From: Escherichia coli
GTDB lineage: Bacteria > Pseudomonadota > Gammaproteobacteria > Enterobacterales > Enterobacteriaceae
Direction: 5' to 3' (one strand)
NCBI RefSeq assembly: GCF_003334815.1
Contig: NZ_QOWO01000016.1
Length of the DNA stretch: 64,000 nt
Under the pieces are notes generated by a model. That model had not been told where the DNA came from. It saw only the letters and a program-made list of their open reading frames with translations, and made no database searches. Below are positions 27,196-27,605 of the stretch, piece after piece; position 1 is the first letter of the stretch, and every line of letters begins with the position of its first letter. The translations under genes were made by a program, and so were the position numbers.

Positions 27196-27605
27196 TTTAC
27201 CCTTCGTAGGCAGCATCCGGCAGTCGGCGCATAATGCCTGATGCGACGCTTGTCGCGTCTTATCATGCCTACAGGTTTGTGCCGAACCGTAGGCCGGATA
27301 AGGCGTTCACGCCGCATCCGGCAGTTGGCGCACAATGCCTGATGCGACGCTTGACGCGTCTTATCATGCCTACAAGTCTGTGCCGAACCGTAGGCCGGAT
27401 AAGGCGTTCAGGCCGCATCCGGCAGTTGGCGCACAATGCCTGATGCGACGCTGACGCGTCTTATCATGCCTACAAGTCTGTGCCGAACCGTAGGCCGGAT
27501 AAGGCGTTCACGCCGCATCCGGCAGTCGGCGCATAATGCCTGATGCGACGCTTGTCGCGTCTTATCATGCCTACAAGTCTGTGCCGAACCGTAGGCCGTA
27601 TCCGG
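27196..27605. repeat. REP/BIME array (about four REP units)
   Basis: repeated GCCGGATGCGGCGTGAACGCCTTATCCGGCCTAC-type palindromes and GCCTGATGCGACGCT units. Confidence 0.9.

Follow-up and report, generated by a model that had tools for sequence, protein, structure and literature searches.

The yjjV–yjjW repeat of Escherichia coli, very probably a strain-specific allele of the K-12 REP352 BIME-2 array

REPs are imperfect palindromes of 30–40 nt with a conserved GTAG located 5′ of the stem (PMC3333891). In BIME-2 elements, Y and Z2 REPs stand in opposite orientation around a short S linker, the flanking motifs fall into classes s, l and r, and the pair is repeated in tandem; the linkers differ from locus to locus and are conserved within a locus, and the number of tandem copies differs among strains (PMC3333891). 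BIME-1 elements are present as a single copy, contain Z1 and have a long L linker carrying an IHF site (PMC3333891).

The closest described system is the K-12 element at the yjjV–yjjW locus, EcoCyc REP352a–h, which overlaps yjjV by 2 nt (bioRxiv 10.1101/2024.07.17.603846). The K-12 annotation NC_000913.3 contains no REP features, and the name REP352 is taken from that preprint (bioRxiv 10.1101/2024.07.17.603846). Under SDS and copper stress, the same work found the DNA of eight REP regions, REP352 among them, to resist exonuclease (‘mobilome’ coverage); it detected no circular DNA and found no sequence-based reason for the protection. Its RAREFAN analysis predicted seven of the eight REP regions highlighted by Nielsen and Hansen to be RAYT-associated REPINs, REP352 being the one not listed (bioRxiv 10.1101/2024.07.17.603846). 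The next relative is REP325, located at yjdM–yjdN, which is a partly Rho-dependent terminator and also stabilizes the upstream mRNA (Harris et al., bioRxiv 10.64898/2026.03.23.713779).

Here, we analyse the repeat between yjjV and yjjW in a stretch of 64,000 nt of E. coli DNA (contig NZ_QOWO01000016.1), which we call the window. The array is an ordinary, textbook BIME-2, already catalogued as its K-12 counterpart, REP352. On the basis of sequence and of analogy with better-studied elements, we consider it very probable that the repeat is a strain-specific allele of the K-12 REP352a–h BIME-2 array, to which roles at transcript 3′ ends and in gyrase binding may be assigned. The importance of the array hardly extends past correct annotation: it accounts for the repeat structure of the region, and the ORFs and ‘naRNA4’ sRNA calls inside it are by-products of REP sequence.

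Architecture of the yjjV–yjjW array

The array runs head to tail with a 101-bp period at positions 27206–27607 of the window (3.8 copies, 95% matches) and occupies the whole 414-bp gap from the stop codon of yjjV to that of the convergent gene yjjW. Tandem Repeats Finder delimited it at 27213–27598 (period 101, 3.8 copies, 95% matches, score 702), and a repeat search gave four copies with spacings of 101, 101 and 100 bp. Upstream lies yjjV, which encodes a metal-dependent hydrolase (26413–27195, + strand; stop TAG at 27193–27195), and downstream lies yjjW, which encodes a glycyl-radical enzyme activase (27610–28473, − strand; stop TGA, the reverse complement of 27610–27612). The initial annotation had placed an array of roughly 400 bp between these two genes, and both the extent and the gene names hold, the names matching the ORF list and the RefSeq annotation of the corresponding stretch of strain PA45B. 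Over 26400–28500, the identity of the window to PA45B is 100%, and that to K-12 MG1655 is 95.3%.

Each 101-bp unit consists of a 35-nt Y REP, a 12-nt head-to-head S linker (gttggcgcacaa or gtcggcgcataa), an inverted 37–38-nt Z2 REP and a 16-nt tail linker (aagtctgtgccgaacc or aggtttgtgccgaacc). At the left end, the yjjV stop is followed by a 10-nt spacer, tttacccttc (27196–27205), which occurs only in the window-type left junction described below and is missing from K-12-type alleles, and by a left Y remnant, GTAGGCAGCATCCGGCA (27206–27222, + strand), a Y REP without the inner 18 nt of its hairpin. Unit 1 (27223–27288) comprises the S linker gtcggcgcataa (27223–27234), a Z2 REP (27235–27272, − strand) and the tail aggtttgtgccgaacc (27273–27288). 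Unit 2 (27289–27389) comprises Y (27289–27323, + strand), S (27324–27335), Z2 (27336–27373, − strand) and tail (27374–27389). Unit 3 (27390–27489) has the same order, with a Y REP (27390–27424, + strand) that carries a C-to-G variant in its loop, S (27425–27436), a Z2 REP of 37 nt (27437–27473, − strand) and tail (27474–27489), and unit 4 (27490–27590) comprises Y (27490–27524, + strand), S (27525–27536), Z2 (27537–27574, − strand) and tail (27575–27590). The array closes with a right Y remnant, GTAGGCCGTATCCGGCA (27591–27607, + strand), which has the same 18-nt deletion of the hairpin tip and ends 2 nt from the yjjW stop.

The REPs thus follow one another as Z2−, Y+, Z2−, Y+, Z2−, Y+, Z2−, flanked at both ends by a 17-nt Y remnant. 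The initial annotation had counted about four tandem REP units. This is correct for BIME-2 units, since each 101-bp unit contains two REPs and four units are therefore four REP pairs, but not for individual REPs, which number seven full copies and two remnants.

We scanned the window for REPs by local alignment to consensus strings that we take to represent Y, Z1 and Z2, cross-checked against K-12 REP325 and the Rfam naRNA4 alignment. The scan identified 16 full REPs over five intergenic loci in the window and no match in any of five shuffled windows; within the array, it detected Y and Z2 and no Z1. The seven full REPs of the array are 35–38 nt long and all start with GTAG, as palindromic units of the REP type do, and the array is strictly extragenic, lying between two stop codons. 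Comparison with a REP consensus, which the initial annotation had proposed as a check, thus identified units that match the Y and Z2 consensus as well as the architecture of REP325. In the search of E. coli genomes, the query matched a median of at least 27 places per genome among the matches listed, as expected of an element repeated many times around the genome.

Y and Z2 alternate in inverted orientation, the S linker is short, the copies are in tandem (3.8 here) and their number varies among strains (none to five units elsewhere), a combination that fits the published definition of BIME-2. The lengths of the linkers, 12 and 16 nt, are consistent with this class. Neither the linkers nor any other part of the array contains an IHF-like motif, and the element is therefore not a BIME-1.

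The Rfam model RF02564 (naRNA4; gathering threshold, 59.5 bits) matches three units on the + strand at 71.6–77.3 bits, with alignments that display both hairpins: unit 2 (27292–27370, 76.6 bits), unit 3 (27393–27470, 71.6 bits) and unit 4 (27493–27571, 77.3 bits). A match at 27209–27269, beginning in the left Y remnant, is below the threshold at 31.5 bits, as are the matches to the − strand of the array (48–54 bits).

Comparison with known REP systems

REP352a–h of K-12 shares with the window array its genes and locus, its four Y–Z2 units, its linkers and its right Y remnant. The gap measures 419 bp in K-12 and 414 bp in the window. The left end in K-12 is a full Y REP overlapping the yjjV stop, whereas the window has the 10-nt spacer and the 17-nt Y remnant, and the last Z2 REP of K-12 retains the consensus GCCTGAT stem, whereas all four Z2 REPs of the window read GCATGAT. 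Our dissection of the K-12 locus yielded eight REPs, the first of which starts inside the yjjV stop codon, in agreement with the description of REP352a–h.

REP325 is built on the same plan of Y, short linker, inverted Z2 and tail, and its Y and Z2 REPs are near-identical to those of the window. In the same scan, REP325 consists of six repeats of Y, 11 nt, Z2 and 17 nt, compared with four units with linkers of 12 and 16 nt in the window. The linkers of the two arrays have no sequence relationship to each other. The genes on either side of REP325 are in tandem within a single operon, whereas those flanking the window array converge. The naRNA4 model, which three window units match above its threshold, was itself built on one Y–Z2 unit of K-12 REP325.

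BIME-1 (RIP) elements belong to the same REP superfamily as the array and are likewise extragenic. In contrast to them, the window array contains Z2 and short linkers, is repeated in tandem and has no IHF-like motif. The features by which REPIN/RAYT systems recognize their substrates, GTAG and stem mismatches, are present in the REPs of the array. The array is a normal feature of E. coli intergenic regions, as the initial annotation had held, given its Y/Z2 units, its REP325-like plan and its place in the catalogue as REP352.

Folding of the array and the transcript ends

Folded singly, a Y REP reaches about −21 kcal/mol and a local Z2 REP about −15 kcal/mol, both with internal mismatches. In all four Z2 REPs of the window, GCATGAT replaces GCCTGAT, a locus-specific change that breaks one stem pair and so weakens the Z2 hairpin from about −22 to about −15 kcal/mol; the Rfam alignment marks the same pair as non-canonical. 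The left Y remnant folds weakly (−1.2 kcal/mol), and the right Y remnant could form a mini-hairpin of 4 bp (−6.8 kcal/mol). The whole array folds much more stably than shuffled sequences, with z = −9.0 for the + strand and −11.2 for the − strand. In the global minimum-energy fold, distant units pair in one long hairpin; we rejected this fold as a model of the structure in the cell, since local REP hairpins are favoured when RNA folds co-transcriptionally.

We found no intrinsic terminator, sought as a G+C-rich stem followed by a T run, on either strand of 27196–27609. The sole stem-plus-T-run site in 26900–27900 falls within yjjV, and an identity of the gap as an intrinsic (Rho-independent) terminator was rejected for lack of such a site. 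With no intrinsic terminator in the gap, the two convergent transcripts have the array as the sole structure at their 3′ ends.

Allelic variation among strains

A strain-to-strain comparison of copy number, also proposed in the initial annotation, revealed that alleles range from a lone Y REP (33 bp) to five units (around 516 bp). The gap was examined in 16 further complete E. coli genomes, 14 of which we typed REP by REP. The 33-bp gap of ETEC1738 and O166:H15 contains a single Y REP, the GTAG of which supplies the yjjV stop. Gaps of 112 bp (TW10573 and FDAARGOS_1293) contain one unit, gaps of 213–234 bp (O157:H7, APEC E18006 and A42) two units and the 314-bp gap of DAM three units; gaps of 414–419 bp (the window, PA45B and K-12) contain four units and gaps of 515–518 bp (ST131, CUVET20-416, AVS0155, E1, LR-17-1 and CRE1493) five units. 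In the minimal allele (ETEC1738, record 1494–1526; O166:H15, record 1094–1126), one Y REP takes up exactly the interval between the two convergent stop codons. Strain A42 has a full Y REP where the window has the right remnant. All alleles examined keep at least one REP hairpin between both stop codons, and the existence of natural alleles with a single REP or with one to five units shows that the size of the array is not essential.

Among 59 evenly spaced chromosomes, in which unit classes were assigned by match span, three contained no unit, 15 one, nine two, five three, nine four and 18 at least five. All six genomes of the last class that were opened have exactly five units; some others of this class may have more.

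Two alleles bear on how the number of units changes. The three-unit allele of DAM, whose YjjV and YjjW proteins are the same as those of PA45B, corresponds to the window allele with a crossover in the S linker that fuses the variant Y REP of unit 3 to the Z2 REP of unit 4, and the extra unit of CUVET20-416 is a hybrid of units 1 and 2. Together, the variation in 101-bp steps and the hybrid units at the breakpoints indicate, at the level of sequence, that the number of units changes through unequal homologous recombination or replication slippage between units, in the 101-bp register. One-unit alleles that have a truncated Y REP at each end cannot have regrown full inner Y REPs, from which we infer that the multi-unit state is the older one in that lineage.

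At this site, E. coli assemblies and alignments will diverge from one another by steps of 101 bp. The alleles form a series, from a lone REP up to five units, that cleanly illustrates how a BIME-2 expands and contracts in nature. The series could serve as a ready-made set for asking whether the number of units tunes the expression of convergent genes. With the array itself already known, this series is the only mildly useful product of the analysis.

In the flanking genes, RefSeq records a frameshifted yjjI in O157:H7 strain 8368 (record 2145–2400) and a frameshifted yjjW in APEC E18006 (record 1310–2169). In some lineages, decay may thus be affecting the neighbouring glycyl-radical enzyme pair.

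Proposed role at convergent 3′ ends

By analogy with REP elements studied elsewhere, the array is likely to act as a two-way 3′-end structure on RNA and as a gyrase target on DNA. Transcription of both yjjV and yjjW probably extends into the array, whose REP hairpins would in that case provide a 3′-UTR structure working in both directions, at which read-through is partially stopped with the assistance of Rho, and would block 3′-to-5′ exonucleases. As DNA, the array may be a preferred site of gyrase binding and cleavage at the point where the positive supercoils of convergent transcription meet. Genome-wide, REPs between convergent genes are associated with higher expression of both genes; the variance from one locus to another is large, and mRNA half-life shows no general dependence on REPs (Harris et al., bioRxiv 10.64898/2026.03.23.713779). 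Gyrase cleavage is enriched in BIME-2 elements, where it falls mostly on Y units and does not depend on transcription (Sutormin et al., PMC6379681); in the accessible portion of the supplementary-table text of that paper, yjjV and yjjW are not named. The likely original source of the REPs is TnpA_REP (RAYT), which is active on REPs (PMC3333891), and later changes in the number of units would need only recombination, with the number left to drift.

The most probable alternative is that the locus harbours selfish or neutral repeat DNA, seeded by one REP and then grown and shrunk by recombination with no effect on fitness. This reading is compatible with the BIME-2 identity and differs from the best explanation on benefit only. 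It is supported by the persistence of alleles from a lone REP to five units, with no dominant state in the 59 chromosomes, and by the signs of decay within the array itself, where the end units are remnants and the Z2 stems carry a destabilizing change. Against it, at least one REP hairpin is kept in every allele examined and the gap offers no other terminator; furthermore, REPs between convergent genes go with higher expression genome-wide, and BIME-2 arrays are gyrase targets. We regard an array without any benefit as possible but rather unlikely.

Left junction and translation of yjjV

The left junction exists in two forms. In the K-12-type junction, YjjV ends in ...NVP and the TAG stop lies within the GTAG of a full Y REP. 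In the window-type junction (27181–27222), YjjV ends in ...VRG, after which come the 10-nt spacer and the 17-nt Y remnant. Because the two forms differ at the end of YjjV, we infer that a REP-associated rearrangement altered its last residues. In the window allele, the first stable hairpin, that of Z2, begins 40 nt past the yjjV stop.

These junctions are central to a reading in which translation is the main target of the array: with a REP hairpin no more than roughly 15 nt from the stop codon, the terminating ribosome would stall and the yield of YjjV, YjjW or both would fall. The K-12-type alleles, with the yjjV TAG inside the GTAG of a full Y REP, have a suitable geometry, and the preprint on REP352, in the section that cites Liang, Rudd and Deutscher 2015, counts the K-12 element among the REPs within the 15-nt limit (bioRxiv 10.1101/2024.07.17.603846). 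On the yjjW side of the array, the mini-hairpin begins 2 nt past the stop codon. However, the first stable hairpin of the window allele begins 40 nt from the yjjV stop, leaving only the 17-nt remnant (−1.2 kcal/mol) within 15 nt, and the yjjW-side remnant forms just 4 base pairs (−6.8 kcal/mol), with the first full REP about 36 nt off. Translation stalling by REPs is plausible for the K-12-type junction and less plausible for the window allele, and we think it unlikely to be the main action of the array.

It is likewise doubtful that unit number (none to five), combined with the form of the left junction, constitutes a heritable, strain-specific dial on yjjV and on yjjW–yjjI. If they did, added units would alter read-through, mRNA stability or local supercoiling for these genes, the window-type shift of the first stable hairpin, from 0 nt to 40 nt past the yjjV stop, would abolish any REP-dependent ribosome stalling exerted by the K-12 type, and the window-type junction would, in addition, alter the last residues of YjjV.

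RNA-coding and protein-coding readings

The naRNA4 matches raise the question of whether the units are naRNA4-like sRNA genes, the RNAs of which would bind HU, bridge distant REP cruciforms and condense the chromosome, a role proposed for the units of REP325 (Qian et al. 2015, PMC4550694). Three units do score above the RF02564 gathering threshold, but the model also matches the REP pairs at 41669–41747 and 46065–46142. It fits any Y–linker–Z2 unit, so a match denotes a class of sequence and not a function. Moreover, deletion or over-expression of REP325/naRNA left the nucleoid volume unchanged, and no HU-dependent contacts between REPs were found (Harris et al. 2026, bioRxiv 10.64898/2026.03.23.713779). 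The linkers of the array are also unlike those of naRNA4, and some strains have a single REP at the site. The units are thus very unlikely to be sRNA genes of this kind.

That the repeat is a protein-coding or CRISPR-like array is barely conceivable: mechanical ORFs of 55–91 amino acids cross it on both strands and its spacing is regular, but the ORFs are translated repeat with no NCBIfam family match, the RefSeq genomes examined have no annotated gene in the yjjV–yjjW gap, and the apparent ‘spacers’, far from being unique, consist of two short linkers that hardly differ between units. We rejected both readings.

Other REP loci in the window

Four other loci had been named in the initial annotation as similar but shorter arrays. 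The scan found REPs at all of them, arranged as single pairs or triplets and not as arrays. We placed their flanking genes using the ORF lists, the PA45B annotation and C-terminal coding sequence. The deoC/deoA locus (31057–31141) contains a Y REP and a degenerate Z2 REP; nadR/ettA (41666–41816) contains a degenerate Y, a Z2, a 33-nt linker and a Y; trpR/yjjX (46062–46145) contains a Z2, 12 nt and a Y; and yaaX/yaaA (60135–60240) contains a Z2, a 35-nt linker and a Y. Four of the five REP loci of the window lie between convergent genes. The window also includes the thr leader, at 54761–54880.

At nadR/ettA, the first Y REP (41666–41700) is degenerate, reading GTCGACCGGAAAAGGTG... compared with GTAGGCCGGATAAGGCG..., and PA45B has a partial nadS pseudogene annotated between nadR and ettA; the degenerate Y REP may lie beside a nadS remnant. 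The long linkers of yaaX/yaaA (60171–60205) and nadR/ettA (41749–41781) each contain an IHF-like motif with one mismatch, and recall the L linker of BIME-1/RIP, though the partner REP is Z2. A match to Rfam ES036 (CssrF) at 60163–60205 (− strand; 38.8 bits, threshold 37.6) falls on the 35-nt Z2–Y linker of yaaX/yaaA.

The yaaX–yaaA gap measures 152 bp in the window (60101–60252), where it contains the Z2–Y pair, compared with 39 bp in PA45B (record 5530–5568), and about 1 kb of extra sequence is located within 31200–41800 of the window. The window is therefore not PA45B throughout, despite the 100% identical yjjV region; the difference is one of REP presence or absence, or a mosaic between close strains. 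Adjoining the Z2 REP of yaaX/yaaA is a short palindrome, TGCCGGGTAACAATCCGGCA (60109–60128), which looks like another internally deleted Y remnant of the kind found at the ends of the yjjV–yjjW array.
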